Assembly (NCBI GenBank): GCA_041665485.1
Contig: JBAYIT010000001.1
Location: 140,270 to 204,269 of the forward strand
Reading direction: 5' to 3'
Length of the DNA stretch: 64,000 bases
Source: Candidatus Shapirobacteria bacterium
GTDB lineage: Bacteria > Patescibacteriota > Microgenomatia > UBA12405
The translations under genes and the position numbers were made by a program. Within the stretch, counting starts at the first letter, position 1. Every line of letters starts with the position of its first letter. The notes below the pieces were generated by a model. It saw only the letters and a program-made list of their open reading frames with translations. It did not search any database and was not told the DNA's origin. Positions 1,307-42,780 of the stretch are shown piece by piece.

Positions 1307-1583
1307 TCTTCAACCATTTTAGCGCATCTTTCGACTTAGTGAAGGCGGGAGAGGTTTGCCCGGCTTCCAAATCAGAAACGGACTTTGCCAGATTATTGGA
1401 AAACCATTGGGAAGGCTTGGTTTCATCTGGTTCAAGAGAGAGATGGAGCGACTTGTTGCGGATGAATTGTTTTAACAAAACATTGATTAACGAGCTTAGA
1501 CTAAGCCCAAGTTCTTCGGCTAGATAGGCAGCCTGCCGTTTAATATTTAAATCAGTTTTGATGTTGATGACAGAGGTGTTCAT
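1293..1583 (-). CDS. DinJ/RelB-family antitoxin (start trimmed to the internal ATG at 1583)
   Basis: N-terminus MNTSVINIKTDLNIKRQAAYLAEELGLSLSSLINVLL resembles DinJ/RelB antitoxins; the track ORF 1293..1691 starts on TTG and its first 36 codons look non-genic; forms an operon with the RelE-like toxin. Confidence 0.5.
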   Translation of the reverse strand: MNTSVINIKTDLNIKRQAAYLAEELGLSLSSLINVLLKQFIRNKSLHLSLEPDETKPSQWFSNNLAKSVSDLEAGQTSPAFTKSKDALKWLKSDQD

Positions 1584-1682
1584 TAGGAAGTAGTATATAC
1601 GATGTATGGATATTGTAAATAGTGAAATTACCGTTAATTTGGAGTGTGTGGTAGGTTGGATAATAAATGATAAAATGGGCAT

Positions 1683-2441: not shown

Positions 2442-2528
2442 TCTACGTCTTTTTTCTGACAATGTGATAAGTTTTTTTCATCGTTCCGCTAAATATAAGT
2501 AATTGATTTGCGGATGCGGCTGTTGGAC

Positions 2529-3434
2529 CTAGGACAGTAATTTCTCATCTGGTAGTAATAAGTAGGGAGCCATTTCTTGAGCTGTTTTTAAGATTCTTTG
2601 CCATTCTTCGTCTATTAGACGAAATTGTTGGCCAACATATTCTCTATAACCCTGATCATTTTCATCCAAAGGTTCTCTTTCAGTTCTGTTAATTTCATCC
2701 AACCAGCTTTGTCTTGAAATACGAACCAATTCAACATCTCTTGCAATAGATCTGATAGCCAGTATCTCTACAGGAGGGTGCATTTGGCCATCAAACCATA
2801 GAGGATTATTCCCCTTTACTATTTCAATCTCCTCAGCGCTTAAAGGAGTACCATCATCTCTGTAAATTCCAATTAATCTAGTGCCTATTCCACCTTTTTC
2901 GTTTGTAATTATTTCGGCCTCTGTCAAGTCAGGCATCTTTTGTATAACTGGATGAACAGCACTGTAAAAGAGAACATTTTCCACTGGCATCTCCACAACT
3001 GAGTAATATCCTCTTCCTTGTATTCCTCCCAATCCACATGCTTCACCAGCCCATGCTTGAGCAATGTCTTCAGTCATAGTATATGAGTCATAAGGAAAAA
3101 GTCTTAGTCTTTCTATTGGTAAACCTCTACCGAAACCACGCCATGCAGTAAATCTTTTCCCTAATTTCTGTTCAGCCTGTCGTTGAGAGATTGATTGGAT
3201 TTCAGCCGCTTCAGCTGGATTATCAATAATAGCTTTGACCACGTCTTCTTTACCTTGGGCTCCAGGACTTCCTACCCATCCAATTAATGCTCTATGAACC
3301 GGCATGTTTTCGGTTGCAGTAAACCACTTGTAAGTATCCTTAAAAATCTCTCTCCATTTTCGTGTAATGTCATCATCGAGAACAAGGGGGTCTTGTTGGT
3401 TTGTAGGAACAGGGATTTTTTCATCTAATATCAT
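2529..3434 (-). CDS. hypothetical protein with atypical codon usage (candidate horizontally acquired gene)
   Basis: 301-aa ORF rich in A/T-ending codons (tta, aga, cct, gct), whereas neighbours prefer G-ending codons (ttg, gtg, ggg); no family recognised by eye. Confidence 0.5.
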   Translation of the reverse strand: MILDEKIPVPTNQQDPLVLDDDITRKWREIFKDTYKWFTATENMPVHRALIGWVGSPGAQGKEDVVKAIIDNPAEAAEIQSISQRQAEQKLGKRFTAWRGFGRGLPIERLRLFPYDSYTMTEDIAQAWAGEACGLGGIQGRGYYSVVEMPVENVLFYSAVHPVIQKMPDLTEAEIITNEKGGIGTRLIGIYRDDGTPLSAEEIEIVKGNNPLWFDGQMHPPVEILAIRSIARDVELVRISRQSWLDEINRTEREPLDENDQGYREYVGQQFRLIDEEWQRILKTAQEMAPYLLLPDEKLLS

Positions 3435-3585
3435 AAAATGATTGGGTTCTGACTAGATAACACTAACTTTGTTGCCTCCTAATGTTTTCTTGCCCACAAA
3501 TAACACTCGGGGCCGAGGAATAATCAAATATTCGCATACAGTTAAGTATAACGCAGGGTGGGACGTTAGCTGTTAGAATTAATAA

Positions 3586-4506
3586 ATGGAACAGCATTCG
3601 ATCCCGCAACAGATAAGCTCGTATGAGTTTAAGCTGGTGGGGGAAATGACTTTGAAACAGTTTTTGAAGGCGGCAGTGGGGATAGTACTGGCCCTAATGA
3701 TTAATGCCACTGGACTGGTGTTTTTTATAAAATACCCCTTAGTTTTGGCGCTTGGAGGCGGAGGTTTGGCTTTGGCGTTTGTGCCTTTTGAAGACAGACC
3801 GCTGGAAACTTGGATTTTGTCTTTTTTGAAGTCAATTTATACTCCGACGATTTTGATTTACAAAAAAAGGGCTGATAAAAACTGGCTTAATATTGACTAC
3901 ACTAGGGCCAAGTTTATTGAGGAAGAAAAAGAAGAGGAGGAAAAAGCGATTCCGATGAAGAATAAAAGCAAAGTGGCAGAATTTATCGATTCGTTGCCAT
4001 CGGTAAAAAGAGCGGATGAGGAGGGTGAGAATCTAGAATCTGGAATCAAGAATCTAGATTTGAAAACCAAAAACCAAGAAATGGGAGAACAGAAATTAGT
4101 AACTAGTAACAAGATACAAGAAGGAGCCGAGCAAAAGACAACTGACTGGAGGGGGGCAGCGGCAAATTTGGGATTGAAATCGGAAAAATTAGAAGCAACG
4201 GCAAAAGCAACTTTTGGATCGATACCAATGCCAGATATTCCCGACCTACCAAACCTGTTGGTTGGAATGGTGACTAGCAAAGAAGGAAAAATAGTTGACG
4301 GAGCAATCGTTGAAATTTTGGACAACTTGGGCAACCCAGTAAGAGTATTAAAGACTAACCCCTTGGGACAATTTAGAACCTCGACACAATTAAGTGACGG
4401 AAAATATCTGGTAGTGACTGAAAAAGAAGGGTTTGGCTTTGATAGAGTAGAAATAAACCTATCAGGAGGGATAGTTGAGCCGATTAAAATCCAGGCATTG
4501 GCCTAA
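3586..4506 (+). CDS. PrgI/VirB3-like T4SS membrane protein with long C-terminal extension
   Basis: N-terminus SYEFKLVGEMTLKQFLKAAVGIVLALMI followed by two TM helices matches PrgI-family proteins that precede VirB4 in Gram-positive-type T4SS; the C-terminal ~190 aa contain an in-frame GAATCTAGAATCTGGAAT repeat and a beta-sandwich-like tail. Confidence 0.5.
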   Translation: MEQHSIPQQISSYEFKLVGEMTLKQFLKAAVGIVLALMINATGLVFFIKYPLVLALGGGGLALAFVPFEDRPLETWILSFLKSIYTPTILIYKKRADKNWLNIDYTRAKFIEEEKEEEEKAIPMKNKSKVAEFIDSLPSVKRADEEGENLESGIKNLDLKTKNQEMGEQKLVTSNKIQEGAEQKTTDWRGAAANLGLKSEKLEATAKATFGSIPMPDIPDLPNLLVGMVTSKEGKIVDGAIVEILDNLGNPVRVLKTNPLGQFRTSTQLSDGKYLVVTEKEGFGFDRVEINLSGGIVEPIKIQALA

Positions 4507-4538
4507 AGACGAGAGATTGGTTATTATTATGTAGCAAT

Positions 4539-5252
4539 ATGGCAACTGACCCGTTAAAAGTCGCAATTAGAGGAACAACACAAGACCACCTACCAATGGA
4601 GGATGTGATTGATGATGTGGTGTTAATGAAAAACGGCGAATGTGCAGCGATAATGCAAGTTTCGTCGGTAAACTTCGACCTTTTGTCGGAAAGAGAGCAA
4701 CAAGCAATGGTCTATGCCTATGGAGGGATTTTAAATTCCCTTAATTTTCCAATCCAAATTGTAATTTATTCAAATACCAAGGATGTTGGTTTTTATCTTT
4801 CGAACCTTAAGATAGCAGAAGAAAAACAGACTAACGGATTATTAAAAACGAGGATTCAGTCGTACCGCAAATTTATCGAGGAAACGGTTAGGAAAAATGA
4901 TGTTTTGTCAAAGTCGTTTTACGTGATAGTCCCCTTCTCAATTTTAGAGTTAGGAATTAAAAGTGCCCAAAGCTCAATTACCGGAAGCTTTAAACTACCA
5001 TTTGGTAATCACAACAAACAAACAGAGTTGCCATTTGAAAAAAACTATATTATAGAAAAGGCTAAAGCTAGTTTAAAACCAAAAAAAGACCATATTATTA
5101 GGTTGTTTGCAAGGTTGGGGTTAGAGATTAAAGCTTTAAATACCAAAGAAATAATTGAATTACTTTATAAAATTTACAATGAAGACACGGCGGCTAATCA
5201 AAAATTACAAACATTAAATTACGATGCGCCAGTGGTTACCGCTAAAATTTAG
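4539..5252 (+). CDS. VirB4 N-terminal-domain-like protein (possibly a split VirB4 segment)
   Basis: EDVIDDVVLMKNGECAAIMQVSSVNFDLLSEREQQAMVYAYGGILNSLNFPIQIVIYS matches the conserved N-terminal segment of VirB4/TrbE/CagE ATPases (DG..L.KDGSL.A..E..G.D..S..EE......N.AL). Confidence 0.5.
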   Translation: MATDPLKVAIRGTTQDHLPMEDVIDDVVLMKNGECAAIMQVSSVNFDLLSEREQQAMVYAYGGILNSLNFPIQIVIYSNTKDVGFYLSNLKIAEEKQTNGLLKTRIQSYRKFIEETVRKNDVLSKSFYVIVPFSILELGIKSAQSSITGSFKLPFGNHNKQTELPFEKNYIIEKAKASLKPKKDHIIRLFARLGLEIKALNTKEIIELLYKIYNEDTAANQKLQTLNYDAPVVTAKI

Positions 5253-5293
5253 ATCCTAGATGATAGATCTTAGATCTTAGATAAAAACAAAAA

Positions 5294-7924
5294 ATGGGAC
5301 TTAATATATTTGCAAAAAAGAAAGCAGACACAACAGCCGTGGCATCGGTTGCGCCACCTGTCGAGAAAACTAAACCTACCGGGGAAAAAGCGTTTGTGGA
5401 GGGATTAGTGTCGACCAAAGACATTATTGCTCCGGGAGCACTGGAGGTTGATTTTAATGAAATTAGAATAAATAACAAGTACTATCGGACCTGTTTTATT
5501 GCCGGATACCCCCGGTTTGTGGGAATGAACTGGCTCTCTCCATTAATCAATTTTGACGCATCGCTTTCGGTGTCGATGTACATCTACCCAACCGACGGCA
5601 AACAAATTTTGGACGATCTTAGGAGAAAAATTGCAGAAATGGAGGCGGAGATAAGTACTGATATTCAAAGAGGAAGGGTGGTTAATCCAACAACACAGGC
5701 AAAGTTGGAAGATGCACTTAATTTACAGGCAGATTTGGCCAAAGGAGAGGAGAGATTTTTTCAATTTGGGTTATATGTGACAATGGCAGCGGAAACAAAA
5801 GACGACTTAAATCGGATTACAAAAAACCTTGAGGCAGCGTTGGGGGCCTTAATGATTAGTAGTAAGAAATCAACCTTGCAGATGGAGGAAGGGTTTATAA
5901 CAACATTGCCTCTGGGAGCCGATAAATTGCAAATAACGAGAAACATGGACACGACGTCGTTGGCGACAACTTTCCCGTTTGTTAGCTCTGATCTTTCCGA
6001 CGATAAGGGGATAATGTATGGAATTAACGAACACAACGGCAGTTTGGTGATTTTTGACCGGTTTTCAATGCCAAACTACAACTCAGTCGTTTTTGCCACT
6101 GCCGGAGCGGGAAAATCATATTTAATTAAATTGGAAGTAATGAGGTCGTTAATGCTGGGAACAGAGATCATCGTTATTGACCCAGAAAACGAATATAAGG
6201 ACTTGTGCGAATCGGTTGGTGGGCAGTATGTGGCTTTTGGTTATAGTGAACCCTCAAAAATAAATCCTTTTGATTTGTCCTTGGTAACAGATGAAGGGGA
6301 AAACGCCCTTAATTCAAAGATTTTGGATTTGCACAAGTTGCTTAAGATAATGATTGGAGAGATGGACCCGATTGAGGAGTCGATTCTAGATAGGGCGGTA
6401 ATGGACGCCTATAAAATGAAGGGAATTACACCGGATCCAGAGACACAAAATAAAGAACCACCTCTAATTGAGGATTTGTATAAATCATTGATTGGAATGG
6501 AGGAGGAAAAAGCGAGAGGTTTGTCGGCCAGAATTGAAAAATATATTAAAGGGTCGTTTGCCGGTATTTTTAATCAAAAAACAACGGTTAGTTTAAACAA
6601 CAAGTTTGTGGTTTTTGGGATTAGAAATTTGGAAGATGCTCTGCGGCCGGTGGCAATGCAAATAATTCTTGACTATATTTGGACGACAGTAAAGAAAAAT
6701 TTAAAAAAGAGAATATTGGTGGTTGATGAGGCGTGGTACTTGATGCAATATGATGATTCAGCGGCGTTTTTGAGAGGAATTGTGAAGAGAGGGAGAAAAT
6801 ATTACTTGGGGGTAACAACAATAACCCAAGATGTGGACGACTTTTTACAAACGCCATATGGCAAAGAAATTGTGACCAATAGCTCGATTCAAATATTGCT
6901 AAAACAGCATAGCGCGGCAATAGATATGATTGGTGATGTTTTTTACCTGTCTGAAGGGGAAAAACAGCTATTAATGTCAGCGGCGAAGGGCGAGGGGATA
7001 TTTTTTGCCGGGCAAAATCATGTAGCGATTAGAGTGATTGCCTCGGAAGAAGAGCATCTTCTGATTACATCAAACCCAGAGGAAGTAATGAAGATTAAGA
7101 ATCAACGAATCAAAGAATCTGCGAATTTAGATTTAAGCAATACAAATATTACAAAACCAGAACCTGCTGAACCGGCTCCCGTGATACAACCTAATGATCC
7201 CGTGGTGCCAGTCGATCCAACTCCTACATCGATCCCAACCCCAGTGGTTGAGCCGTCTATCAGCCCGGTTCCAGTAGTTCCGGCTCCTGTAGCTCAAACC
7301 CCCGTAGTACCAGTAGTAAGTGAACCAAGTAAACCCAGATTTGTAACGGAGGTAGTGGGTGTACCTCAAGAAACTAGCCATGAGGAATTGCTATCAAAAA
7401 AGATTAATGAAATGGAGGAACTGGAAAAGGCCGAATTGGCAAAATTCGAGGAACAGAAAAAGATAGATGACGAGAAAAAGAAGAAAGAGGAAGAAGAAAA
7501 GGCAAAAATGGGTGGATTTGGAGGAAGTAGTTTTGGGGGGTTACCCAAATACGGCGATTTATTTAAATCAGCCGGAAAGTTACCACCACTACCTCCCCTA
7601 CCACCTTTACCTAAATATCAAGCACCAACAGTAAATAACCAAACAATTTCTCCGTCTGAGACGGATTCCGCTTCGCTTCACAATAACCAAATTCCAAGTT
7701 CCAAACAGGAAGATAAAAAAACTAAACCAATATTCGTGGATATGACGGAGAAACAAATACCCCAACCACTGCAATTGCAGAAAAAAGCAAAACCCATTTT
7801 TGAAGAATCTACGAATCTAGAATCTGGAATTAAGAAAGACAACAAAAATGAGGAAATAGGAACAAAAAAAGACGACAAAGTAAACAAATCCTATGATGAG
7901 TTGTTTGGAAACGGGATTGTTTAG
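5294..7924 (+). CDS. virB4: VirB4/TrbE/PrgJ-family type IV secretion ATPase with Pro-rich and Lys/Glu-rich C-terminal tail
   Basis: Walker A VFATAGAGKSYL, Walker B ILVVDEAWYL and the VirB4 N-domain segment YYRTCFIAGYPRFVGMNWLSPLI; about 180 aa of tail contain a PxP-rich stretch, PPLPPLPPLP and a repeat-encoded ESTNLESGIKK. Confidence 0.85.
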   Translation: MGLNIFAKKKADTTAVASVAPPVEKTKPTGEKAFVEGLVSTKDIIAPGALEVDFNEIRINNKYYRTCFIAGYPRFVGMNWLSPLINFDASLSVSMYIYPTDGKQILDDLRRKIAEMEAEISTDIQRGRVVNPTTQAKLEDALNLQADLAKGEERFFQFGLYVTMAAETKDDLNRITKNLEAALGALMISSKKSTLQMEEGFITTLPLGADKLQITRNMDTTSLATTFPFVSSDLSDDKGIMYGINEHNGSLVIFDRFSMPNYNSVVFATAGAGKSYLIKLEVMRSLMLGTEIIVIDPENEYKDLCESVGGQYVAFGYSEPSKINPFDLSLVTDEGENALNSKILDLHKLLKIMIGEMDPIEESILDRAVMDAYKMKGITPDPETQNKEPPLIEDLYKSLIGMEEEKARGLSARIEKYIKGSFAGIFNQKTTVSLNNKFVVFGIRNLEDALRPVAMQIILDYIWTTVKKNLKKRILVVDEAWYLMQYDDSAAFLRGIVKRGRKYYLGVTTITQDVDDFLQTPYGKEIVTNSSIQILLKQHSAAIDMIGDVFYLSEGEKQLLMSAAKGEGIFFAGQNHVAIRVIASEEEHLLITSNPEEVMKIKNQRIKESANLDLSNTNITKPEPAEPAPVIQPNDPVVPVDPTPTSIPTPVVEPSISPVPVVPAPVAQTPVVPVVSEPSKPRFVTEVVGVPQETSHEELLSKKINEMEELEKAELAKFEEQKKIDDEKKKKEEEEKAKMGGFGGSSFGGLPKYGDLFKSAGKLPPLPPLPPLPKYQAPTVNNQTISPSETDSASLHNNQIPSSKQEDKKTKPIFVDMTEKQIPQPLQLQKKAKPIFEESTNLESGIKKDNKNEEIGTKKDDKVNKSYDELFGNGIV

Positions 7925-7947
7925 GAAATTTTGGGTATAATTTCGGT

Positions 7948-10857
7948 GTGGCAACAGACATAAAACAAAGACGACAACCTATTGAAGTGGTGGGGGCCGG
8001 CGGATGGGATAGAAACGAACCAGAAACAGTGGGAGAAGTTTTGAGGTTACTTGAAGCTAGAGGCGGAAGAATAATAGACATAGAGGAAGAAGGTGGAGTT
8101 TGGCGGAAAATTGTTCAAATTTGTCAATACTTTGGAGTTACTGGTAAATTAAGCGTTGATCCGGTAGAGATCTTGAAGACACTTAAGATTGAGGCAAAAG
8201 ATGAAAATTTGACTTTGGATGAGGTGGCTGAAGAACTTAATAAAAGAATAGAAGAGGCGATTGAAAGGCCGGAGTTGGAGACTAAGACGTTGAATTCGGA
8301 ACAACTAAAGATATTGCTTAGGAAACTTGACGACCATTTGATGGAGCAAGGAAAAACAACAGAGGCAGTTGAGAGAGTGGCAAAAACATACGGCCTCGAC
8401 AAGGACGGAGAGGCTTTATTGGCCCAGGCGGTGGCGAGAAAAAAAGAAATTGAGATAAAACTGGCGAAACATGGAGCTGATGTCATCAGTGACAGCCAGG
8501 TAGTAGCTGAAGCAATGTTGGTTGAGGAAGGGTTGTCCAAAAAAGAAGCCAAAGAATCGGCAGAAAAGATGGTTGAAGTAGTGGTGGAAGATAGAACTAA
8601 TAGACCGAAAGTTAGAGAAGAGCTTGCTGGTGAGAGTGAATCAGTAAGACAGGTGGCGGAAGAGTTGACAGTAGCCTTGGAAATCGAAGAAAAGCTTCAA
8701 GATGCAACGAGGGAAACAGTGGAACTAACTAGAGAGACAGAGGCAAAATTGAGACCAGTGCTGGGTGATAGGGCACTGGAAGTGGCAGTGGCGGTGGCAA
8801 ATGGAACCGAACCAGAGAAGGCAGTGCCAACGGAATTAAAAATAGAAAGAAGAGAGAGGGAGGTAGTGATAGTAGAACTAGGACATGAAAGAGAAACGAT
8901 AATGGTCGAACAACAAATCAGAGAAAAGGTAAATATTGTTTCGACTAGATTGGCAGAAGTGTTGGGAATAGAAAGGGATGGTGTGGCAGTTGAAGAGATA
9001 AGACGAGAAGTGGAAGAAAGAATGAGGATGACAATGAGAGATGGAGGTGATTTGAACCGACCAGTGGCGACTGTAGTGTCAGGGACAGAAGGTGTAGTAG
9101 TACGAACGACAATGATAGGTAAAGTTGAGGAGGTGGTAGGGGCTGAAGTACCAACAGAAAAACTGAAGCAGGTAAATTCAATATTGGATGGCGCGAGTCA
9201 GGAGCTGAATAAATACCAAGATCAGTTTGGTGATGTTTTAGCTTGGCGCAAAAGACATACTCGGGAAGAAGTAATTGATGCGATGGTGGCTAGAAGCGGA
9301 GTAAGCAACCAGTCTATTGTCGATTATGCTTCGAGATTGGCTGATATAGCCGAGAAAGAGAGTCCAATTGAAAAATGGAAAAATGTAGCTTTAAGTAATC
9401 TTGAAGCACAACAAATGAATTTGGCCGAAAACGAAAGATTAAGCCCGACTCAAAGAGAAAATGCTTGGGATAAAATAGTGGGGATTTCAAAAATCCTAAG
9501 AATGTCGCCTGACGTTTTTGATGCTACAGTAGCAGCTAGGAATAAAGTGGTTGAAGCGATTGGTGAAACAGCCGTTGATGGAGTAAAACTAGGTAGAGTC
9601 GGTATTTATGATCAGATATTTAAGTTGGCGGGGGAAAATGAGGGGCTGAAATCGATGTTGAATTTTGTTCAAAAGAAAGTGGCCTTTTTTGAACAATTTA
9701 ACAACCTTGGCTTTCAAATATTTAGCCGATTGGGCGGAGAAGAAATGGCGCTTAATTTTGCCGGCAGAATTGCCGGACAAGCAGGGGTGGAGTTTGCCAA
9801 AGAAGGTTTAATGATAATGGCGGAACAAGGAGCTGGGGCAGGAATAAGATTTGGATTGGAGAAAATTGCTGGGCAATTAGCGGTAAGATTTGGGATAAAC
9901 TCGGCGACTACAGTTGCAACTAGCGGGGCAACAACTGGATCAATTGCGGTGGCGGGAGCGGCGACAGGCCCACCAGGATGGGTGATAGCAGCAATAGTAA
10001 TTGGTGTTCAATTGGTAGGAAAGGCGGTGGGGTGGGTGGTGGGGAAAATTAAGGGATTTTTTGGAGGAATGCTGGGGGCACTGGGAATAGATGCCAAGAT
10101 GTTTGATGCGGTTGGGGGAATTAAAAACTTTTTGAAAGAGAATGGTATGGGACTGTTGAACAAGCCGATGGAATTGATTGAGGGTTTACTGAATATAATC
10201 GGGATGGGGTGGATAGCAAAGGATTTGGGGAACTTAATAATTTGGGTGGTTAGTGGAGTTTTTGTGGGGTTTTTACTGATTTCTTCAATGCTGACGGCTC
10301 CGATTGCCTCACTTTTTCTGCCACCGGGGAGAGGGGTGGGAGGGGCGGTGGTGGACCAGACGACGCTAAACGGCGGTTATTTGGCGGCGGCGCCATGGAG
10401 CGGTGACATAAACGAACTGCCAGACTCCTGCCCACCAGATAGCTTGCCAATTGGGGGAACGGTGACACAGGGACCTTTAGCAAAAGACTGCTCTCATGCT
10501 CTTTACAAAAACGTCATTGATGTGGCCGGACCGAAAGATAATATCTTATCAACTCATGATGGAGTAGTAGAAGCAGTAATAAATATGGGTGATGGGTATG
10601 GGCAATATGTTGATATTAGGGGAAGGTGTGGCACGACTACTTTTGTAACCCGTTATGCGCACATGGTTGTTGGTTCACCTAAAGTGAAGGTGGGAGAAAA
10701 AGTGGAAAAAGAGAAAACAATACTTGGGACGCGAAATAGTTCGGGAAATTCAAGCGGAAATCACTTACACTATGAAATTAGAGGACTAACAACAGAATAT
10801 TTTCATGACTGGGAGGGATGTTGTAATGAAAATAATGGTACTTTTTGTAAAAATTAA
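7948..10857 (+). CDS. large coiled-coil / Gly-rich membrane protein with C-terminal M23 (LytM) peptidase domain
   Basis: 969 aa. The N-terminal ~470 aa are Glu/Arg/Lys-rich and predicted coiled-coil. The middle has Gly/Ala-rich hydrophobic segments. The C-terminus carries M23 motifs HDGVV...YAHM...GNSSGNHLHYEI. Confidence 0.7.
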   Translation: MATDIKQRRQPIEVVGAGGWDRNEPETVGEVLRLLEARGGRIIDIEEEGGVWRKIVQICQYFGVTGKLSVDPVEILKTLKIEAKDENLTLDEVAEELNKRIEEAIERPELETKTLNSEQLKILLRKLDDHLMEQGKTTEAVERVAKTYGLDKDGEALLAQAVARKKEIEIKLAKHGADVISDSQVVAEAMLVEEGLSKKEAKESAEKMVEVVVEDRTNRPKVREELAGESESVRQVAEELTVALEIEEKLQDATRETVELTRETEAKLRPVLGDRALEVAVAVANGTEPEKAVPTELKIERREREVVIVELGHERETIMVEQQIREKVNIVSTRLAEVLGIERDGVAVEEIRREVEERMRMTMRDGGDLNRPVATVVSGTEGVVVRTTMIGKVEEVVGAEVPTEKLKQVNSILDGASQELNKYQDQFGDVLAWRKRHTREEVIDAMVARSGVSNQSIVDYASRLADIAEKESPIEKWKNVALSNLEAQQMNLAENERLSPTQRENAWDKIVGISKILRMSPDVFDATVAARNKVVEAIGETAVDGVKLGRVGIYDQIFKLAGENEGLKSMLNFVQKKVAFFEQFNNLGFQIFSRLGGEEMALNFAGRIAGQAGVEFAKEGLMIMAEQGAGAGIRFGLEKIAGQLAVRFGINSATTVATSGATTGSIAVAGAATGPPGWVIAAIVIGVQLVGKAVGWVVGKIKGFFGGMLGALGIDAKMFDAVGGIKNFLKENGMGLLNKPMELIEGLLNIIGMGWIAKDLGNLIIWVVSGVFVGFLLISSMLTAPIASLFLPPGRGVGGAVVDQTTLNGGYLAAAPWSGDINELPDSCPPDSLPIGGTVTQGPLAKDCSHALYKNVIDVAGPKDNILSTHDGVVEAVINMGDGYGQYVDIRGRCGTTTFVTRYAHMVVGSPKVKVGEKVEKEKTILGTRNSSGNSSGNHLHYEIRGLTTEYFHDWEGCCNENNGTFCKN

Positions 10858-10859
10858 TT

Positions 10860-11831
10860 ATGAAAATAAAAATAATTGGCTTAATTTTGGTAATAATGGC
10901 AATAGTGGGGTTAACGGTGCTAAGTTTGGTTAACAAAAACAAAACCGACCAAGACCAAACGATAAAAATGGGGAAGATTCCAGAGATTGCTGATAAACCA
11001 GTTTACAGAAAGGAGTATTTGGAAAACTATGAAAGGGTGAGCAATATTTGGTGGGAAACGGAAAGGGTAGAACTGCCAACTGAGGCCCAGGCAATAAAAT
11101 TAAAACCAGGGTTTGTGGACATAGCTAATTTAAGACAATGGGCAGAGAAGATGGGACTAGAGTATGTGGAGGGCAAGTGGACCGACGGCAATAAAAAACA
11201 ACTAAGCTATAACCCGCAAACAAAAAAGTTGGAGTATGCAGAAAATATTGAGAGCAAAAAACAACTAACGGGAAACAACCTACCAATAGAAACAATTAAA
11301 GATAATTTAATAAAACTTTTGGCGGAAATTGAAGGACCAAAAAATTTGCCGGTGGTAATTACCGAAACAATTCCCAGAAAACTGGTTTATCCAAGGTGGG
11401 TGACAACAACAGAAAAAGAGGCTGAAGTGTTTGAAATCAGAGCCAATTATAAAATTAACGGAGTGGAAGTGGCTATTGACGGCTGGGAATCGATAAAAAG
11501 TGTCTGGACTCGAGGTGGAAAACTAATAAAACTAGTGACGGTTTGGCCGTTAGAGACGGGGGAGAAACAAGATATAAAAACTAAAAATCTAGCTGAAATA
11601 CAGAGCGCTTTAAATGGGGGTGGAATAAGAATATGGCAAGTTAGAGGAGGAGAGAAAACCGATTTAAGCTACAATACAGAGACAATAAATAGGGCGGTAA
11701 ATGAAATAAGCCTGATGTATGTTTATGATGAAAAAAATAGTTGGCTAATGCCTTATTACAAATTAGTGGGAAATGCAATTGCTAACAATGAGCCGGTTAG
11801 AATTGAATTTGTTGCGGAAGCAGGAAATTAG
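10860..11831 (+). CDS. membrane-anchored hypothetical protein (T4SS-locus associated)
   Basis: N-terminal TM helix IIGLILVIMAIVGLTVLSLV; the start codon overlaps the upstream stop; no recognisable domain. Confidence 0.5.
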   Translation: MKIKIIGLILVIMAIVGLTVLSLVNKNKTDQDQTIKMGKIPEIADKPVYRKEYLENYERVSNIWWETERVELPTEAQAIKLKPGFVDIANLRQWAEKMGLEYVEGKWTDGNKKQLSYNPQTKKLEYAENIESKKQLTGNNLPIETIKDNLIKLLAEIEGPKNLPVVITETIPRKLVYPRWVTTTEKEAEVFEIRANYKINGVEVAIDGWESIKSVWTRGGKLIKLVTVWPLETGEKQDIKTKNLAEIQSALNGGGIRIWQVRGGEKTDLSYNTETINRAVNEISLMYVYDEKNSWLMPYYKLVGNAIANNEPVRIEFVAEAGN

Positions 11832-11852
11832 ATGTTAGATCCTAGATTTTAG

Positions 11853-12254
11853 ATGATAGATATTAAAAATAAATACCAAAAATATCAGATTTTGATTTGG
11901 TTAGGAGCGATAGTGGTGGCGATGTCGGTGATAAAAATTACCTATAAACCGGATAAAAACGAGATTATTAATCAACAAATTAGTCAACCGGGGGTGACTA
12001 TTGCTTTGACACCAACGGTGGAGCCGGAACCACCAATAACCGAACCGGAAACAAATTATGATGAAGATTTTCCCTTGTGGCAGTTACTCCCCTACTCGGG
12101 AGCCGGGTTTACGGTTGACCGCTATTTATCGCCAAAAACGCTTGGGGTAAAAATTAAGGGAATTGATAAAAAAATAGTGGAGGAAAGAATTAAAACGTGG
12201 CTTCTACAAAATAAGATTGAGGAAGGAAGTCATAAAATTGAATACCTCAATTAA
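11853..12254 (+). CDS. membrane-anchored hypothetical protein
   Basis: 133 aa with an N-terminal TM helix ILIWLGAIVVAMSVI. Confidence 0.45.
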   Translation: MIDIKNKYQKYQILIWLGAIVVAMSVIKITYKPDKNEIINQQISQPGVTIALTPTVEPEPPITEPETNYDEDFPLWQLLPYSGAGFTVDRYLSPKTLGVKIKGIDKKIVEERIKTWLLQNKIEEGSHKIEYLN

Positions 12255-12308
12255 ATTTTTAATTTGAAATTTTTAATTTTTAATCAATTTTTAATTATTA
12301 AATTTTAA

Positions 12309-12572
12309 ATGATAAAAAAAATAGTTTTAACTATGCTTTTTGGTTTAATGTTGGGTGGGTGTAGTTTGGGAAAACCACAAGAGAGTGCAGTGGTAGAGAT
12401 GATGGGAACAGTAAAAACGAAAGTTGGCGATGAATATATTTTTATGACTAACGGCGAACTGAAAAACATTACCAGCAACAAAGTTAATTTAGACCAATAT
12501 GTAGGAAAAGAGATAAAAGTAAAGGGAATGTATTCGGGATCAACATTGTATGTGGATGAAGTGGGGAATTAG
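12309..12572 (+). CDS. small lipoprotein
   Basis: Signal peptide with lipobox LMLGGCS. Confidence 0.55.
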   Translation: MIKKIVLTMLFGLMLGGCSLGKPQESAVVEMMGTVKTKVGDEYIFMTNGELKNITSNKVNLDQYVGKEIKVKGMYSGSTLYVDEVGN

Positions 12573-12595
12573 AAACCAGAAATAAGAGATAAGAA

Positions 12596-13063
12596 CTAAG
12601 AGCTAAGATCTTTTTCTAGGTCAACAACCCAATCCTCTACCCCATTATAAATTCCGTCCAAGTATGGTTTGTCAGAGATTACTTTGTAGTCGAGTTTTTC
12701 GTATAATCTTTTAGCGTTGGCATTTAAATCAGGATTAACGGCTAAACCAGTCTTTTTAAACCCTTTATTTTTGGCTTTATTTTCGCATTCTTGAATTAGA
12801 GCGGTTCCAAAACCCTTGCCTCTTTCAGAATCTTTAATGTAAAGATCACCCATGTCGGGATATTCGGGATGAGTTTCTTTGCCAGTCCACTTTAAAACAA
12901 CAAAACCAATAATTTGGCCATCAACTTCTATGATTAAAAATTCAGAATCACCTTTATTTTGATCTGACAGTCTTTGATTAATAATCTCGTCGGAAAGATT
13001 TTCGGAGCGAATAAGTTTAAGTGAGGAAATATCGGAATAAATGACGGGGCGAATAGTAATCAC
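12596..13063 (-). CDS. GNAT-family N-acetyltransferase (start set to GTG at 13061-13063, 2 nt after the dnaN stop)
   Basis: GNAT motifs IGFVVL...RGKGFGTALIQ; the track ORF extends to 13183 but would overlap the dnaN 3' end by 118 nt. Confidence 0.65.
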   Translation of the reverse strand: MITIRPVIYSDISSLKLIRSENLSDEIINQRLSDQNKGDSEFLIIEVDGQIIGFVVLKWTGKETHPEYPDMGDLYIKDSERGKGFGTALIQECENKAKNKGFKKTGLAVNPDLNANAKRLYEKLDYKVISDKPYLDGIYNGVEDWVVDLEKDLSS

Positions 13064-30954: not shown

Positions 30955-31011
30955 AAGGAGAATGTGCGGAGTTTTTTGTAGAGATAAGAACTAAGAGATA
31001 AGAACTAAGAA

Positions 31012-32969: not shown

Positions 32970-32982
32970 GAACACAGAACTA

Positions 32983-36142: not shown

Positions 36143-37912
36143 TTACAGTTTCCCATCTTGCACTTTCTTTCCTATGTCTTGGACTGCTTTTCCAGCCCTG
36201 CCGGTTAGAGATGGATTCATACCCCAGGGAAGTTTGATTTTACTAAGTGGGCCTGTGTTGCTGGCAATACGAGAACCAACCTCTTGAATTAGTGGTCCAC
36301 CAATCTCTTGTCTTGCTGTAGATTCGATAAATTTATTGCTATAGCTTTGACCAATGGCTTGGGACCAGGGGGATGGTTTAAGGGAGAAGATAAACTGGGG
36401 GATCATCTCGGGCATTTTGGAGACAAGACCAAGGCCGGCGAGGCCGAGGCCGGCTTTGACGATGGCGTTGGCACTCCACCAGTTACTACCAGCGGCACCA
36501 ATGAGGAGTTGGCCGGGAATCCAGAGACTTTTACCGGCATCACTTAGGATTGTTTCGCCAATAAGGTTTAAAAGAACTAAGAATATAGTGGTGATGGGGA
36601 AAATGGCGATATAGCCAATAAGATCATTAATCCAAGAGGAAAATCCCATTTTGGAGCCGGGGAAAGCACCCATGGCAATTTCTAGTGGGGCAATAATAAT
36701 TTTAAAGATAATGGTGATATAGGCTTTGATTAGACCAAAAAATAGCTTGATGAGCCAGAAGGTCATGATGATGGTCATGACAAGAGAAACTAAGACTCCA
36801 CCGATGGTGCCACCGACGAGACCGCCGGTAATACCCATTCCGATTCTGGCAATATCGTTGCCTACTCCTCCCATAATAAGGTTGAAAATACCACCACCAA
36901 GGGTGCCCAGAACGACACTACTAACCATACCACTTAGGGCGTAGAGGGCCCAAGAGGGCATAGCATGATAGACCAGACTTTGATAAGTATTAAAGCTGGG
37001 GTTGGTGAGATGTTCGAGGGTGTAGGGACTGGTACCGGTAAATTGTTGATAAGCAGATTGTATAGCTGTTCCTGCCCAAGAGGTGGGCATAATATTATTA
37101 AAGATTCTCCAGGGGTTAAGAAGGTCACCGCCGAAGGCGGTGCCAGTAATGGTGTAGAACATGGCAATAACCAGGCCGGCGAGGAGATAGATAAAATCAA
37201 TGGCCAGACCGGCAATAGCGTAAGAGAAAGTGACGAGAATGAGAGTGGTGATGAGTCCCGGGATGGCATTTTGGATGGTGATGACGGCTTGGGGAGAGAT
37301 TTTGACCCGCAAAATTATCATGATGCCGATGGCGATAAAAACAATAGAAGATAAAACATAAACAATGTTTCTGAAACCACGCCAAAGAGGAAGAAGAGGC
37401 TGGAGACCGGCAAAACCAACACCTTGAGCGTAGGCTGGCTTACCTAAAAAATTATCTTTAACAGAGGCGATATATTCTATTCCAGATGCTTGGGGATAAT
37501 TTAGAGTGGCAATCATGCCAGAGAGATTGCCAGCAACACCTCCGGGAACCCATTGAGAAGAAGCGATGGGCTGACCGTTTTCAATAGAAGAAAGTAAACC
37601 ATCAGGAATGTCAATAATGTTGGTTAGAATGTTGAGAAAGTGAAAAATGGTGGTGAAAATGGTTGAACCGAACCAACCTTCGACGCTACCACCGGCTTTG
37701 ATAGCGTCGCGCTGATAGCGAATTTCAGATTTTTCGGCGGCGACAGGAACAGCAACTAGAAACAAGAAACAAAAACCGAGAACTAAGAGAATTTTGGTGG
37801 ATTTGGAGAGCTTGGGAAGAAGGGGGAGGTCACGACGATTAAGATTGGAATCTACGAATCTACGAATCTGGAATCTGGAAAAAAATGATGAAAAGCGAGA
37901 ACTTAGAGACAT
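36143..37912 (-). CDS. polytopic membrane protein, possibly VirB6/TrbL-like (start uncertain)
   Basis: 589 aa: signal/anchor, an extracytoplasmic domain of ~130 aa, then eight or more TM helices with Gly-rich loops; the track N-terminus is coded by GAATCTACGAAT repeats; lies downstream of the pilin-like array. Confidence 0.4.
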   Translation of the reverse strand: MSLSSRFSSFFSRFQIRRFVDSNLNRRDLPLLPKLSKSTKILLVLGFCFLFLVAVPVAAEKSEIRYQRDAIKAGGSVEGWFGSTIFTTIFHFLNILTNIIDIPDGLLSSIENGQPIASSQWVPGGVAGNLSGMIATLNYPQASGIEYIASVKDNFLGKPAYAQGVGFAGLQPLLPLWRGFRNIVYVLSSIVFIAIGIMIILRVKISPQAVITIQNAIPGLITTLILVTFSYAIAGLAIDFIYLLAGLVIAMFYTITGTAFGGDLLNPWRIFNNIMPTSWAGTAIQSAYQQFTGTSPYTLEHLTNPSFNTYQSLVYHAMPSWALYALSGMVSSVVLGTLGGGIFNLIMGGVGNDIARIGMGITGGLVGGTIGGVLVSLVMTIIMTFWLIKLFFGLIKAYITIIFKIIIAPLEIAMGAFPGSKMGFSSWINDLIGYIAIFPITTIFLVLLNLIGETILSDAGKSLWIPGQLLIGAAGSNWWSANAIVKAGLGLAGLGLVSKMPEMIPQFIFSLKPSPWSQAIGQSYSNKFIESTARQEIGGPLIQEVGSRIASNTGPLSKIKLPWGMNPSLTGRAGKAVQDIGKKVQDGKL

Positions 37913-37931
37913 GGAAAGATTATACTAAAAA

Positions 37932-37973: not shown

Positions 37974-38058
37974 GAATCTACGAATCTGCCTGCCGGCAGG
38001 CAGGTCTGGAATTTACGAATTTAGAACCAGAAATTGGGTTTACGATTTACAAAATAAA

Positions 38059-40385: not shown

Positions 40386-40793
40386 CTAGCCGGGGATTTG
40401 GAAGATAGTGAGAGTGGAAATACCGGTGAAATTTTGGATAAGGCGTAAGATTAGCCAAGATGCAATGACACCAACTAGGCCGATAATGGCAGAAGTGAGG
40501 GTGCCAGCAGCGCCGGCGGCTTTTTTAGGATCGCCGTTACTTAGGACATAATTGAACCCACCAACAATAAACATAACCAAGAACACTAAACCGGCAATAG
40601 TGACGACGACAGATAGAGTGTTGTAAAAGAGACATTCGAGACCCTGAATAGTGGCAACGTCAGGGTTGGCTTTATCGACACAACGGGGGTCGCGAGCTTT
40701 CCAGTCTTGTTGGGCGAGGGCGGGGGCGGGGGCGGGAGAGATAAGAACTAAAAGATAAGAGATAAGAACTAAGAGATAAGACAGGCGGGACAT
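40386..40793 (-). CDS. pilin-like two-TM 'GDSKK-loop' protein, paralog 6 (start trimmed to ATG at 40791-40793)
   Basis: [29 protein letters not shown] signal-like segment coded by the repeat, then TM1, loop NGDPKKAAGAAG and TM2; the track ORF to 40949 would overlap paralog 1. Confidence 0.5.
   Translation of the reverse strand: MSRLSYLLVLISYLLVLISPAPAPALAQQDWKARDPRCVDKANPDVATIQGLECLFYNTLSVVVTIAGLVFLVMFIVGGFNYVLSNGDPKKAAGAAGTLTSAIIGLVGVIASWLILRLIQNFTGISTLTIFQIPG
40731..40790. repeat. word-repeat family D (GAGATAAGA / ACTAAGA variants), representative copy
   Basis: Other copies at about 12565-12605, 25855-25895, 26405-26440, 27110-27310, 30975-31010, 32960-33006, 33396-33426 (inverted), 40285-40320. 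Confidence 0.8.
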
Positions 40794-40800
40794 AAGTGGA

Positions 40801-40840
40801 TTATAGCAAACTAAAACCCCTCCGATAGCTATCGGAGGGG
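40801..40840 (-). terminator. Rho-independent terminator candidate after pilin paralog 1
   Basis: Perfect 24-nt palindrome CCCCTCCGATAGCTATCGGAGGGG (40817-40840) followed on the minus strand by TTTTAGTTT. Confidence 0.5.
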
Positions 40841-40867
40841 TTTGGAAAACAAGATCAGTTTCCAGAC

Positions 40868-41236
40868 TTATGGCTGGAAAGTGGGAACAGTCAAGGTTCC
40901 GAGAATGTCGATACCAAAGACGGTACCAATTAGCTTCATGATAGCCCAAGCAGCGAAGACAATGGCCAAACCAATGAGAGCATTGGTGATTTGATTTCTG
41001 GCACCTTCAACATTTTTACTATCGCCTTGGCTCATGACCCAACGAAGGCCACCCCAGACGAGCATAAAGAAAAACACAAGGGCAACGACCAACATAATAA
41101 GGGAGATGGCGCCGGAGATTATACCGCCAGCAGTAAGACCAGTAAGGGAATCCCACCCGCCACCAGCTTTTGGCTGGAGTTTAATTTGTTGTTGGGCGTA
41201 AGCCGGAACAACCAGAGAAAGTTGACTTAGGTTCAT
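40868..41236 (-). CDS. pilin-like two-TM 'GDSKK-loop' protein, paralog 1 (TrbC/VirB2-like architecture)
   Basis: 122 aa: signal-like N-terminus with AYAQQ, TM1, loop SQGDSKNVEGARNQ and TM2. Confidence 0.55.
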   Translation of the reverse strand: MNLSQLSLVVPAYAQQQIKLQPKAGGGWDSLTGLTAGGIISGAISLIMLVVALVFFFMLVWGGLRWVMSQGDSKNVEGARNQITNALIGLAIVFAAWAIMKLIGTVFGIDILGTLTVPTFQP

Positions 41237-41291
41237 AGTTTTTTAATTTATAAGTTAAATTTGGTTTATTTTAGCAATAAACCTTAATTTA

Positions 41292-41612
41292 TTAAATAGG
41301 GAGGAAAATTTGGAGATTTTCCAGATCCTTAAGGCCGAAGACCCAGCCGACTAATTTAAGGACAGCAAAGAGAGAGAAAAGAAGAACAAGACCAATCATG
41401 CCGTTGGTGAGCTCTTTTTTGGACTCTTCAATTTTTTTGCTGTCGCCTTGGCCGTCAATGAGATGAAAAGCAGCCATGAAGATAAACCAACAGAAATAAA
41501 GAACGCCAACTAACATAAAGATGGAGAAAACCGATTGAATAACGTTGTTAAGATAGATGATGGGTTCGTTGACCTGGGCTCCCGGAGTTTTGAGAATTGG
41601 GTTGGTGATCAT
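41292..41612 (-). CDS. pilin-like two-TM 'GDSKK-loop' protein, paralog 2
   Basis: 106 aa: TM1, loop DGQGDSKKIEESKK and TM2. Confidence 0.55.
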   Translation of the reverse strand: MITNPILKTPGAQVNEPIIYLNNVIQSVFSIFMLVGVLYFCWFIFMAAFHLIDGQGDSKKIEESKKELTNGMIGLVLLFSLFAVLKLVGWVFGLKDLENLQIFLPI

Positions 41613-41974
41613 AGGCCAAGTTTATCAAACATACTATTGAGATCGAGGACATTTTCCAGACCGAGGAGCTTGGCCATAAGAGCACCCAGGCCGAGAGAAA
41701 CAACAACAATAAATAAACCTAAAATGCCGTCGGTAAGGCGCTTTTTGGCATCTTGGGCTTTTTTGGCATCACCTTCGGAAGAAATGTAGGCATAGCCGGC
41801 AAAAATAATCTGGATAGAGAAGTAAATGACAGCAACAACGGTGAGGATGCCGATAACACGACCGACGGTGAGCTCGAGAGCGCTGGTGGCAGTTTTGGGA
41901 GAATTGGGATTTTGACCCGGACCACTTAGACCGTAATTGTTGTGAGGAATTTGGGCTAAAAGTTTATTGAACAT
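41609..41974 (-). CDS. pilin-like two-TM 'GDSKK-loop' protein, paralog 3 (start trimmed to ATG at 41972-41974)
   Basis: TM1, loop SSEGDAKKAQDAKK and TM2; the stop of the preceding paralog overlaps. Confidence 0.5.
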   Translation of the reverse strand: MFNKLLAQIPHNNYGLSGPGQNPNSPKTATSALELTVGRVIGILTVVAVIYFSIQIIFAGYAYISSEGDAKKAQDAKKRLTDGILGLFIVVVSLGLGALMAKLLGLENVLDLNSMFDKLGL

Positions 41975-41978
41975 AAAA

Positions 41979-42335
41979 TTAATTTGGCCCCCAAATAACA
42001 GGTTTGGTGGCGGAGATACCGGTGAGGCGCTCGATAACACCGGAAAGAATAAAAGCCGAAGAAATAATAACCAACCCTAAAATACTTTGCCAAATTTTGG
42101 CCCAAGCCAGCTCGGTTTTTTTGGAATCACCATTGGCAGAAATATATTCGTAACCGGCGATAATGAATTGAAAAACAACATAAATAGCGCCGATAGTGCC
42201 AACAATTTTAAAAATATTGCTCATGAAGATAAAGAGACCGGAGCCGGCATCGCTTTTATATGCAGTGGGGTTGCCAACTGTACCAAAAATTCCGGCTGCA
42301 GAAGCGGGAATTTTAGAAACTAGAAACCCCCCCAT
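41979..42335 (-). CDS. pilin-like two-TM 'GDSKK-loop' protein, paralog 4 (start uncertain; track ORF extends to 42488)
   Basis: TM1, loop SANGDSKKTELAW and TM2; upstream 42339-42420 holds a 13-nt inverted repeat and is more likely intergenic. Confidence 0.45.
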   Translation of the reverse strand: MGGFLVSKIPASAAGIFGTVGNPTAYKSDAGSGLFIFMSNIFKIVGTIGAIYVVFQFIIAGYEYISANGDSKKTELAWAKIWQSILGLVIISSAFILSGVIERLTGISATKPVIWGPN

Positions 42336-42444
42336 GCCCGTCATCGCGAGGCCGAAGGCCGTGGCGATCCCAACGAGATTGCTTCGTCCCCCGATAGTTA
42401 TCGGGATCCTCGCAATGACGTATGGGGTTATTTGTTTGATCATG

Positions 42445-42780
42445 TTAGATGGTGGGGTTGAGGATTTTGAGGCCAGTAATAACTTCAACTATTTGAATAA
42501 TAAAGTAAGCTAAAAAGACAACTAAAAAACCAATAAGGGCGTTGGTGATGGCTCCAGATGATTGAGCTGTTTTTTTAGAATCACCGCTACCGGCATTAAT
42601 TATAAAGGTAAGACCGCCGAAAATCAAAAGAGCCAGAAAAACAATACCAGCAACAGTGAGAGCGTTTTTGAGAATAATGGAGACGAGAACGGCCAGATTG
42701 GGATAGGAAGAGGAGATGGTGTGGCCACTGCCAAGAGGAGTATCACCAATTTGAACTTGAGCAAGAACTGGTTTAAACAC
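42445..42780 (-). CDS. pilin-like two-TM 'GDSKK-loop' protein, paralog 5 (first gene of the array; GTG start)
   Basis: 111 aa: TM1, loop NAGSGDSKKTAQSSG and TM2. Confidence 0.55.
   Translation of the reverse strand: MFKPVLAQVQIGDTPLGSGHTISSSYPNLAVLVSIILKNALTVAGIVFLALLIFGGLTFIINAGSGDSKKTAQSSGAITNALIGFLVVFLAYFIIQIVEVITGLKILNPTI

Follow-up and report, generated by a model that had tools for sequence, protein, structure and literature searches.

A probable Patescibacteria-type type IV secretion gene cluster beside dnaN and dnaA in a Candidatus Shapirobacteria genome

We analyzed a chromosomal locus of seven genes, encoding a PrgI/VirB3-like membrane protein, a TrsD-family protein, a VirB4 ATPase, a membrane-spanning cell-wall hydrolase, and three small putative membrane proteins or lipoproteins, in a 64,000-nucleotide stretch of a Candidatus Shapirobacteria genome (assembly GCA_041665485.1, contig JBAYIT010000001.1, positions 140,270 to 204,269; hereafter the window). 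A reading of the sequence without database searches (the original prediction) had described this region as a type IV secretion system (T4SS)-like locus consisting of a PrgI/VirB3-like gene, a VirB4 ATPase, and a membrane-anchored wall hydrolase. That description holds, since the open reading frames (ORFs) it named are real and the components were confirmed by domain matches, but its proposals of a duplicated VirB4 segment, of a full-length VirB4, and of a possible frameshift between two ORFs did not stand. Our results indicate that the whole cluster is very probably the chromosomal T4SS gene cluster typical of ultra-small Patescibacteria, described in 2025, in a host of the class Microgenomatia.

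Gene content and surroundings of the locus

The coordinates of the seven ORFs and of related features are given in Table 1. All seven are co-directional with gaps of 2-54 nt, and the complete VirB4 ORF, of which the core and the tail are listed separately, spans 5294-7924. A promoter and terminator consensus scan of the locus gave counts not above those in shuffled sequence. The short gaps and the lack of internal promoter or terminator signals above chance are consistent with transcription of the block as one operon.

Table 1. Features of the T4SS-like cluster, its conserved neighbors, and the distant pilin region in the window
Feature	Position	Strand	Evidence or remark
PrgI/VirB3-like membrane protein, 306 aa	3586..4506	+	PF12666, PF13620, two transmembrane helices
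TrsD-family protein, 237 aa, predicted first part of the VirB4 N-terminal domain	4539..5252	+	NF041427, model alignment, fold match
TrsD-VirB4 spacer, 41 nt	5253..5293	.	five TTAGATC heptads, stop codon in every frame
VirB4 ATPase core, residues 1-~606, second half of N-domain plus P-loop/RecA-like domain	5294..7111	+	NF045971, 4AG5, Walker motifs
VirB4 C-terminal tail, ~270 aa (residues ~606-876), low-complexity	7112..7924	+	composition, motifs
Membrane-spanning cell-wall hydrolase, 969 aa	7948..10857	+	PF01551, transmembrane and charge data
Single-pass membrane protein, 323 aa, fast-evolving, accessory subunit candidate	10860..11831	+	transmembrane segment 5-23
Single-pass membrane protein, 133 aa	11853..12254	+	transmembrane segment 13-31; tblastn 29-47% identity at syntenic position, ~22 or more loci
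Putative lipoprotein, 87 aa	12309..12572	+	hydrophobic N-terminus, lipobox-like LGGC; syntenic matches 35-54% identity
dnaN	13066-14184	-	DNA_pol3_beta domains; conserved neighbor, follows cluster in most related loci
dnaA	14452-15789	-	Bac_DnaA E=9.7e-63; conserved chromosomal neighbor
Polytopic membrane protein, 589 aa, VirB6 analogue candidate	36143..37912	-	TrbL/VirB6 E=8.6e-4, sub-cutoff
VirB2-like T4SS pilin array, five called genes (six overlapping PF18895-positive ORFs)	40386..42780	-	PF18895 E 5e-10 to 5e-5

The upstream flank contains a 5'-3' exonuclease gene, a RelB/YafQ toxin-antitoxin pair, a PIG-L deacetylase gene, and a gene for a 301-aa protein. The downstream flank contains a GNAT acetyltransferase gene, dnaN, and dnaA, followed by rnpA, yidC, and jag. 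These housekeeping flanks, including dnaN and dnaA, place the locus in the chromosomal replication-origin region. The GC skew was strongly positive (0.16-0.48) over almost the whole window, with the exception of 2001-4000 (-0.03), and it kept its positive sign through the minus-strand dnaN and dnaA genes and through the dnaA-rnpA region, in which a switch of sign linked to an origin could have been anticipated.

Relatives were collected by a scan with the VirB4 core, keeping one genome per species, which yielded 413 confirmed relatives. The best 80 of these shared 60-85% VirB4 identity with the protein studied here, and their informative labels were Shapirobacteria, Woesebacteria, Curtissbacteria, and "Patescibacteria group"; most of the 80 bore Shapirobacteria, Microgenomates, or Patescibacteria titles, and many others among them were labeled generically or evidently wrongly (e.g., "uncultured Gammaproteobacteria"). 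The order exonuclease-PrgI-TrsD-VirB4-hydrolase, continuing to dnaN, was kept in metagenome-assembled genomes of Shapirobacteria, Woesebacteria, and Curtissbacteria, and the synteny between the exonuclease gene and dnaN/dnaA was conserved in ~76 species. In many relatives, the exonuclease and PrgI genes abut; here, ~2.5 kb (1046-3434) is inserted between them, comprising the RelB/YafQ pair, the PIG-L deacetylase gene, and the 301-aa orphan gene, for which no homologue was found in any related locus.

TrsD, VirB4, and their partner proteins

The 237-aa protein matched the TrsD/TraD family NF041427 (E=2.4e-9) and carries a precomputed match to PF26593 (TraC-like). The 876-aa protein matched NF045971, the model for VirB4-like conjugal transfer ATPases of the CD1110 family, with 389 bits against a cutoff of 325, and was matched by the C-terminal domain of Thermoanaerobacter VirB4 (PDB 4AG5, E=2.9e-48) and by PF19044, PF12846, and PF01935 (P-loop_TraG, AAA_10, and DUF87). 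With a Walker A motif (ATAGAGKS) at residue 271 and a Walker B motif (ILVVDE) at residue 474, these matches confirm the original call of a VirB4 ATPase. PF03135, a search that had been proposed with that call, gave no match on the 876-aa protein.

The two proteins were then compared with models of complete VirB4 proteins. On NF045971 (752 positions), the 237-aa ORF corresponded to positions 2-131, and residues 36-579 of the 876-aa protein to positions 182-734. On the VirB4 model of the Mycoplasma integrative and conjugative element (ICE) protein Mbov_0397 (894 positions), the corresponding stretches were 104-233 and 294-889. The 237-aa ORF did not match TIGR00929 (792 positions), on which residues 59-593 of the 876-aa protein covered 237-761, or the F-type TraC model (800 positions), on which the 876-aa protein started at 271. 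BLASTP found no similarity between the two proteins. The 237-aa ORF had been thought to duplicate an N-terminal segment also present in the 876-aa protein; such a duplication is ruled out by the lack of mutual similarity and by the non-overlapping stretches of the models. The 876-aa protein had likewise been taken for a full VirB4 with its own N-domain, and it instead begins at about position 182 of the 752 in NF045971.

A profile search of 1.84 billion representative sequences identified 2614 family members of the 237-aa protein, and the family domain was N-terminal in all 150 members listed. Among these 150 was one fused protein with a P-loop_TraG domain (P0178, 787 aa). Its residues 6-199 correspond to the 237-aa ORF (43% identity) and its residues 213-776 to residues 45-607 of the 876-aa protein (64% identity), in two collinear alignments without overlap. 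The distinct, consecutive model positions and this collinear fused relative indicate that the two ORFs are complementary pieces of one VirB4. Judged from these alignments, the 237-aa TrsD-family protein supplies the first ~130-180 VirB4 positions that are missing from the 876-aa protein. A structural comparison, which had been suggested as a check of similarity to the VirB4 N-domain, agreed with this assignment. In a Foldseek search of the PDB with the AlphaFold2 model of the 237-aa protein (mean pLDDT 63, a moderate quality), the top 14 matches were all chains of R388 T4SS inner-membrane-complex/TrwK (VirB4) entries, with E-values from 2.5e-4, and the next match had an E-value above 1. Phmmer and profile searches of the PDB with the 237-aa sequence returned chance matches only, such as caspase-6.

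The gene upstream of TrsD encodes the PrgI/VirB3-like protein and is immediately upstream of TrsD-VirB4 in at least 69 related loci. PF12666 (PrgI) matched residues 6-89 of this 306-aa protein below threshold (22.3 bits against a cutoff of 27, E=1.9e-4), but was matched by all 70 scanned syntenic orthologues (best E 4.5e-10), which upholds the PrgI assignment of the original prediction. Transmembrane helices at ~21-39 and 45-63 are followed by a charged linker, with six K/R residues directly after the second helix. From these features, an N-in/C-in topology is predicted. A CarboxypepD_reg-like beta-sandwich was identified at residues 226-295 (PF13620, E=1.1e-5) and is present in 69 of the 70 orthologues; with both termini predicted to be cytoplasmic, this domain would face the ATPase.

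The 969-aa protein encoded directly downstream of VirB4 carries the C-terminal M23 peptidase domain that had been proposed for it (PF01551, residues 857-946, 47.4 bits against a cutoff of 28.7). Its residues 1-470, a candidate coiled coil in the original prediction, contain 35-37% charged amino acids (DEKR), and about three transmembrane segments were found (679-697, 747-765, and 771-789), which together predict a charged cytoplasmic N-terminal part of ~660 aa and an external M23 domain. The M23 motifs are H850-x7-D858, H905, and H939xH941. The canonical first motif is HxxxD, and the H-x7-D spacing is common to most M23-bearing orthologues; peptidase activity is plausible. The layout of the 969-aa protein recurs in 47 related loci, where the product of the gene directly 3' of virB4 is 680-1240 aa long. 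The head domain varied among the 40 orthologues scanned: M23 in 14, CHAP in 7, Peptidase_C39_2 in 5, VanY in 2, and Amidase_2 and NlpC/P60 in 1 each. Such variation of the peptidoglycan-hydrolase head on an otherwise conserved protein supports a role like that of VirB1, PrgK, or TraG, and the 969-aa protein is thereby supported as a putative functional stand-in for VirB1/PrgK.

The 323-aa protein has six detectable homologues, and a syntenic gene for a protein of ~300-346 aa is present in many relatives. Its family gave no Pfam match and no match in a PDB profile search, and its AlphaFold2 model, built from the six-sequence alignment, was unusable (pLDDT 34.6). The 133-aa protein and the 87-aa putative lipoprotein likewise have no Pfam or PDB relatives. 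The single-pass topology of the 323-aa and 133-aa proteins would suit a VirB8/PrgL/TcpC-like protein with an NTF2-like domain, but no profile match to such a domain was obtained. Pfam scans of 53 small downstream proteins gave nothing consistent.

We also investigated the C-terminal tail of VirB4, whose proline-rich character and PPLPPLPPLP segment had been pointed out before. Its composition (P 13%, K 12.5%, E 11%) and the sequence LPPLPPLPPLP bear this out, and it ends in KSYDELFGNGIV. Among 74 relatives, the tail length ranged from 6 to 426 aa. Motifs were counted in the 40 relatives whose tails reach 140 aa or more. Y[DE]x[LIMV][FL], usually followed by G, ends 36 of these 40 long tails (shuffle expectation, 0.005 of 40), and LPPLP is present in 27; the 33 short-tailed VirB4s are without the terminal motif. 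By sequence, the tail is a variable linker that presents short conserved peptides, and LPPLP and the terminal Y[DE]xLFG probably dock a putative partner protein. In other Patescibacteria lineages, a low-complexity tail of 70-480 aa is found on the TrsD homologue instead (P0122-P0270 of the representative library). TrsD homologues of at least 300 aa accounted for 103 of 150 representatives, of which 32 end in LPP[LI][PA]EI and 23 in F[VI]VEEL. These conserved terminal peptides parallel the tail motifs of Shapirobacteria VirB4. It is conceivable, although rather improbable, that the disordered tails of VirB4 in Shapirobacteria, or of TrsD in other lineages, serve as recruitment arms that dock substrates or a partner and replace VirD4 in part. 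Docking might then take place, for example, on the beta-sandwich that PrgI is predicted to expose to the cytoplasm or on the hydrolase protein's charged domain of ~660 aa.

Two other candidates for short motifs were rejected. With dnaN nearby, Y[DE]xLFG was considered as a beta-clamp-binding motif and was dropped, by reasoning alone, on its pattern mismatch with QLxLF. NLESGIK, which occurs in both the PrgI linker and the VirB4 tail, was considered as a docking motif; it is absent from the orthologues (0/71 and 0/73, respectively) and arises from the DNA heptad AGAATCT, arrays of which lie within the coding regions at 4028-4058 (PrgI linker) and 7804-7836 (VirB4 tail) and encode NLESGIK in both.

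Pilin genes and other features of the window

Pilin and VirB6 candidates had been placed some 25 kb from the cluster. The pilins were verified as the six overlapping PF18895-positive ORFs listed in Table 1. The location of the VirB6 candidate was also right, and its identification as VirB6 is weakly supported: TrbL (PF04610) was matched by 2 of 35 orthologues of the 589-aa protein, and a PDB profile search with the family gave no match. With 593 homologues, the ORF is a real and widespread gene. A gene of this type sits between the pilin array and PrgI in nine relatives, and this genomic position is what supports a VirB6 assignment, which is not established.

In the relatives L077, L085, L059, and L068, the pilin array is on the same strand and at most 10 kb upstream of PrgI-TrsD-VirB4. 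More distant Microgenomates, including the closed 615-kb chromosome L077, contain one same-strand cluster of ~16 kb that ends at dnaN, in the order pilin array, 589-aa-like gene, PrgI, TrsD, VirB4, and hydrolase protein. In the present genome, this cluster is split into two sub-loci, the pilin/VirB6-like part having moved 25-30 kb away.

Around the pilin array, the public ENA gene call for 36143-40326, which consists of small plus-strand ORFs and a truncated 261-aa gene, is probably wrong. The part of this region not occupied by the 589-aa gene is filled by a 755-aa ORF on the minus strand (38059-40326) with a signal-peptide-like N-terminus. The GC content of the region is raised (0.49). Beside the array and divergent from it (42894-47686) lie genes for a 7TM_transglut membrane protein, an ATPgrasp_ST protein, two RimK/GSH-S-like ATP-grasp ligases, and an SNase-like nuclease, which suggests a peptide-ligase or modification module. 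They are followed at 47695-54097 by large secreted-looking proteins, three with weak cohesin/dockerin matches (402, 494, and 252 aa) and one of 816 aa without matches, which may form a cell-surface assembly.

Tandem heptanucleotide repeats are a further feature of the window, in which 34 arrays of period 7, 14, or 21 were found against ~2.6 in dinucleotide shuffles. Intergenic sequence, ~9% of the window, contains fourteen of the 34, and several others are located at gene edges. They include TTAGATC arrays (e.g., 5249-5282, 11828-11865, and 46674-46707), AGAGATA/AGAACTA arrays (12578-12608, 30980-31010, 32962-32999, 40279-40321, and 40737-40781), and xAGTTAC arrays (26969-26995, 37932-37964, 42814-42832, and 56402-56423). 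Because many heptad units include a stop codon, each of the three frames is closed within such an array. Heptamer repeats with the unit TAACTGA have been reported as abundant between the genes of Beggiatoaceae (PMC4679880).

The rRNA operon (54296-62360) is unusual in that the window contains no 16S gene, and tRNA-Ile (54296) is parted from tRNA-Ala (58248), 23S, and 5S by genes for a GH18 chitinase-like protein, a VTT-domain protein, and a 391-aa protein. The 23S rRNA gene (58537-62103) is 3567 nt long against a model of 2925 positions, corresponding to ~640 nt of insertions, with tandem-repeat tracts at 58707-58823 and 59935-60035. No ORF of at least 100 aa was found inside it.

Interpretation and comparison with known systems

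The Patescibacteria T4SS was surveyed by Quinonero-Coronel et al. (2025, Microb Genom; PMC12102498), who described a Patescibacteria-specific VirB4 clade related to the mating-pair-formation class FATA (MPF-FATA). In that survey, TrsD is the component found most often beside virB4, PrgI/VirB3 homologues are present, VirB2-like pilin arrays occur especially in Microgenomatia and Saccharimonadia, and M23 and other hydrolases act as stand-ins for VirB1. Relaxases are almost absent, genes for the type IV coupling protein (T4CP) are usually far from virB4, and the Microgenomatia T4SS lies near dnaA, dnaN, and rnpA (PMC12102498). The locus described here is a further instance of this published system, which derives from the monoderm MPF-FATA conjugation machinery. 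Several points weigh against our reading of the locus and its parts. The TrsD match scored 37 bits against an NCBIfam cutoff of 200, so the 237-aa protein is a homologue and not a curated family member; its structural model is moderate only, with a TM-score of ~0.4; and the fused relative P0178, known from an unannotated metagenomic library, may itself reflect faulty gene calling. The first M23 motif has a non-canonical spacing, the docking partner of the VirB4 tail motifs is putative only, and equivalents of VirB6 and VirB8 are without confident assignment. Finally, the absence of a coupling protein and relaxase covers the 64-kb window only, and the function would be extrapolated from one Saccharibacteria species.

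Two alternatives concern whether this is an intact, resident system at all. The TrsD and VirB4 genes are adjacent, in different frames, and jointly reconstitute a full VirB4, of which one fused relative exists, as might be expected if a frameshift or an assembly error at 5252-5294 had disrupted one VirB4 gene and left a pseudogene or artefact; a frameshift had been suspected there. We give this practically no chance, and the suspicion is excluded by the comparative data: the split and the 237-aa protein are identical in three assemblies (JGI, ENA, and Logan), the two genes are separate ORFs in 76/76 related species' loci that hold both, with varied overlaps and spacers and, in L063, a distance of 5.5 kb, and each of the top 120 homologues of the 237-aa protein stands alone, at a length of 231-254 aa. 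A stand-alone TrsD is also known from the pGO1 subclass and from Patescibacteria (PMC12102498). An ordinary conjugative element of the Gram-positive type, an ICE or integrated plasmid with its relaxase and coupling protein outside the window, would account for the homology of PrgI, TrsD, VirB4, and the wall hydrolase to monoderm conjugation systems such as pGO1 and CTn2 and for the best VirB4 model being a "conjugal transfer ATPase, CD1110 family." This is nevertheless very improbable. The fixed order and flanks, from the 5'-3' exonuclease to dnaN/dnaA in ~76 species, indicate vertical inheritance in the core chromosome. Precomputed and new Pfam annotation and a Walker-A scan of the 64-kb window revealed no relaxase, VirD4/TcpA coupling protein, or VirB11, and no integrase was found there; the P-loop proteins of the window are solely VirB4, DnaA, FtsH, and one AAA_14 ATPase. 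The composition of the cluster is the same as that of its flanks, and the survey found relaxases in only 103 Patescibacteria genomes, rarely near virB4 (PMC12102498). The original prediction, which had noted the absence of the same three conjugation genes from the window and considered a conjugation system unlikely, is thus supported on both counts: conjugation genes are absent nearby, and the pilin and VirB6-like genes are elsewhere in the window.

A third alternative leaves the parts as they are and concerns the direction of transport. The same machinery could be an import device for host DNA or other molecules, like the Helicobacter ComB T4SS, and not an effector exporter. We consider this unlikely but deserving of attention, since no coupling protein or relaxase is nearby in the window, Patescibacteria make neither nucleotides nor lipids themselves and depend on acquired building blocks, and T4SS genes adjoin comF, recG, and radA in the class ABY1 (PMC12102498). 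A review also proposes the T4SS and pilus as an uptake conduit from the host (PMC12857230). By contrast, in Southlakia epibionticum, deletion of comEC abolishes competence and not viability, whereas the T4SS is essential (PMC12857230); DNA uptake through ComEC therefore does not account for this essentiality. The window shows no identifiable component specific to uptake, and the direction of transport is not readable from sequence.

Given the parts list and the TrsD/VirB4 complementarity demonstrated here, a Patescibacteria T4SS at this locus might be assembled as follows. By analogy with R388 and Gram-positive T4SSs, PrgI and TrsD would anchor the VirB4 hexamer to the membrane as a membrane-proximal collar; the idea that VirB3 and the VirB4 N-domain act as a membrane anchor is founded on the R388 VirB3-VirB4 structure. 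The hydrolase protein would open the wall locally, and its cytoplasmic and transmembrane parts may serve as a channel scaffold. VirB4 would power pilin extraction and assembly, substrate passage between epibiont and host cell, or both, rather than conjugation, and its long tail would act as a flexible tether that presents LPPLP and the C-terminal Y[DE]xLFG to a putative partner.

No T4SS before that of Patescibacteria had been shown to be essential for its bearer, and one more Shapirobacteria instance by itself adds little. Three features, none of which is mentioned in the 2025 survey (PMC12102498), appear to be new: the VirB4 tail as a variable linker with a terminal Y[DE]xLFG and internal LPPLP, the swapping of hydrolase heads between species in the protein 3' of VirB4, and the conserved C-terminal beta-sandwich domain on PrgI. 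The explicit demonstration of the TrsD/VirB4 split and the adjacency of PrgI to virB4 throughout the examined Microgenomatia loci are further modest additions. Such comparative details are experimental handles on how a monoderm epibiont assembles and loads a T4SS machine, the handles being the strict complementarity of TrsD and VirB4, the terminal peptides on variable tails, the interchangeable hydrolase heads, and the adjacent PrgI-like gene. The data also suggest that published surveys with hidden Markov models under-detect VirB3-, VirB6-, and VirB1-type partners in Microgenomatia.

The cluster shares with the surveyed Patescibacteria T4SS a TrsD beside an MPF-FATA-like VirB4, a PrgI/VirB3 protein, a VirB2-like pilin array, a peptidase-type hydrolase 3' of virB4, the lack of a relaxase (here in the window), and a chromosomal position beside dnaN/dnaA in a Microgenomatia host. 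One difference is the distance of 25-30 kb between the pilin/VirB6-like part and the rest of the cluster. Few VirB3 and VirB6 homologues were reported with virB4 in Microgenomatia (PMC12102498), whereas a PrgI-like gene was adjacent in every locus examined here. The experimental counterpart is the system of Southlakia epibionticum ML1 (Wang et al. 2023, as cited in PMC12857230). According to PMC12102498 and PMC12857230, its T4SS, with TrsD and PrgI homologues, a pilin array, and downstream peptidase and lysozyme genes, is essential for epibiotic growth.

Among classical systems, the subclass of MPF-FATA represented by the Staphylococcus Trs systems of pGO1/pSK41 (TrsC-TrsD-TrsE-TrsG) is the only one with a stand-alone TrsD beside a VirB4 homologue, and it has the same order as here: VirB3-like protein, TrsD, VirB4, and wall hydrolase. 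By contrast, the conjugative plasmid pGO1 encodes a relaxase and a coupling protein and no VirB2-like pilins, and the TrsD similarity is remote. The Enterococcus Prg/Pcf system of pCF10 (PrgI, PrgJ, and PrgK) and the VirB4 of the CTn2/CD1110 ICE share the PrgI domain and the CD1110 VirB4 model with the present locus, which has a membrane-anchored multi-domain wall hydrolase at the position of PrgK. These systems differ in having a single-polypeptide VirB4 that includes the first ~180 positions, together with a relaxase, T4CP, and adhesins, and PrgK-type hydrolases carry SLT and CHAP domains without the ~660-aa charged cytoplasmic part. The inner membrane complex of R388 Trw (TrwM/VirB3-TrwK/VirB4; PDB 7O41 and 8RTB) is the source of the only entries matched in fold by the 237-aa model, and TrwK residues 446-739 are matched by the ATPase domain of the 876-aa protein. 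R388, however, is diderm and has a core in the outer membrane; its VirB4 is a single chain and carries no C-terminal tail, and the sequence similarity is very low.

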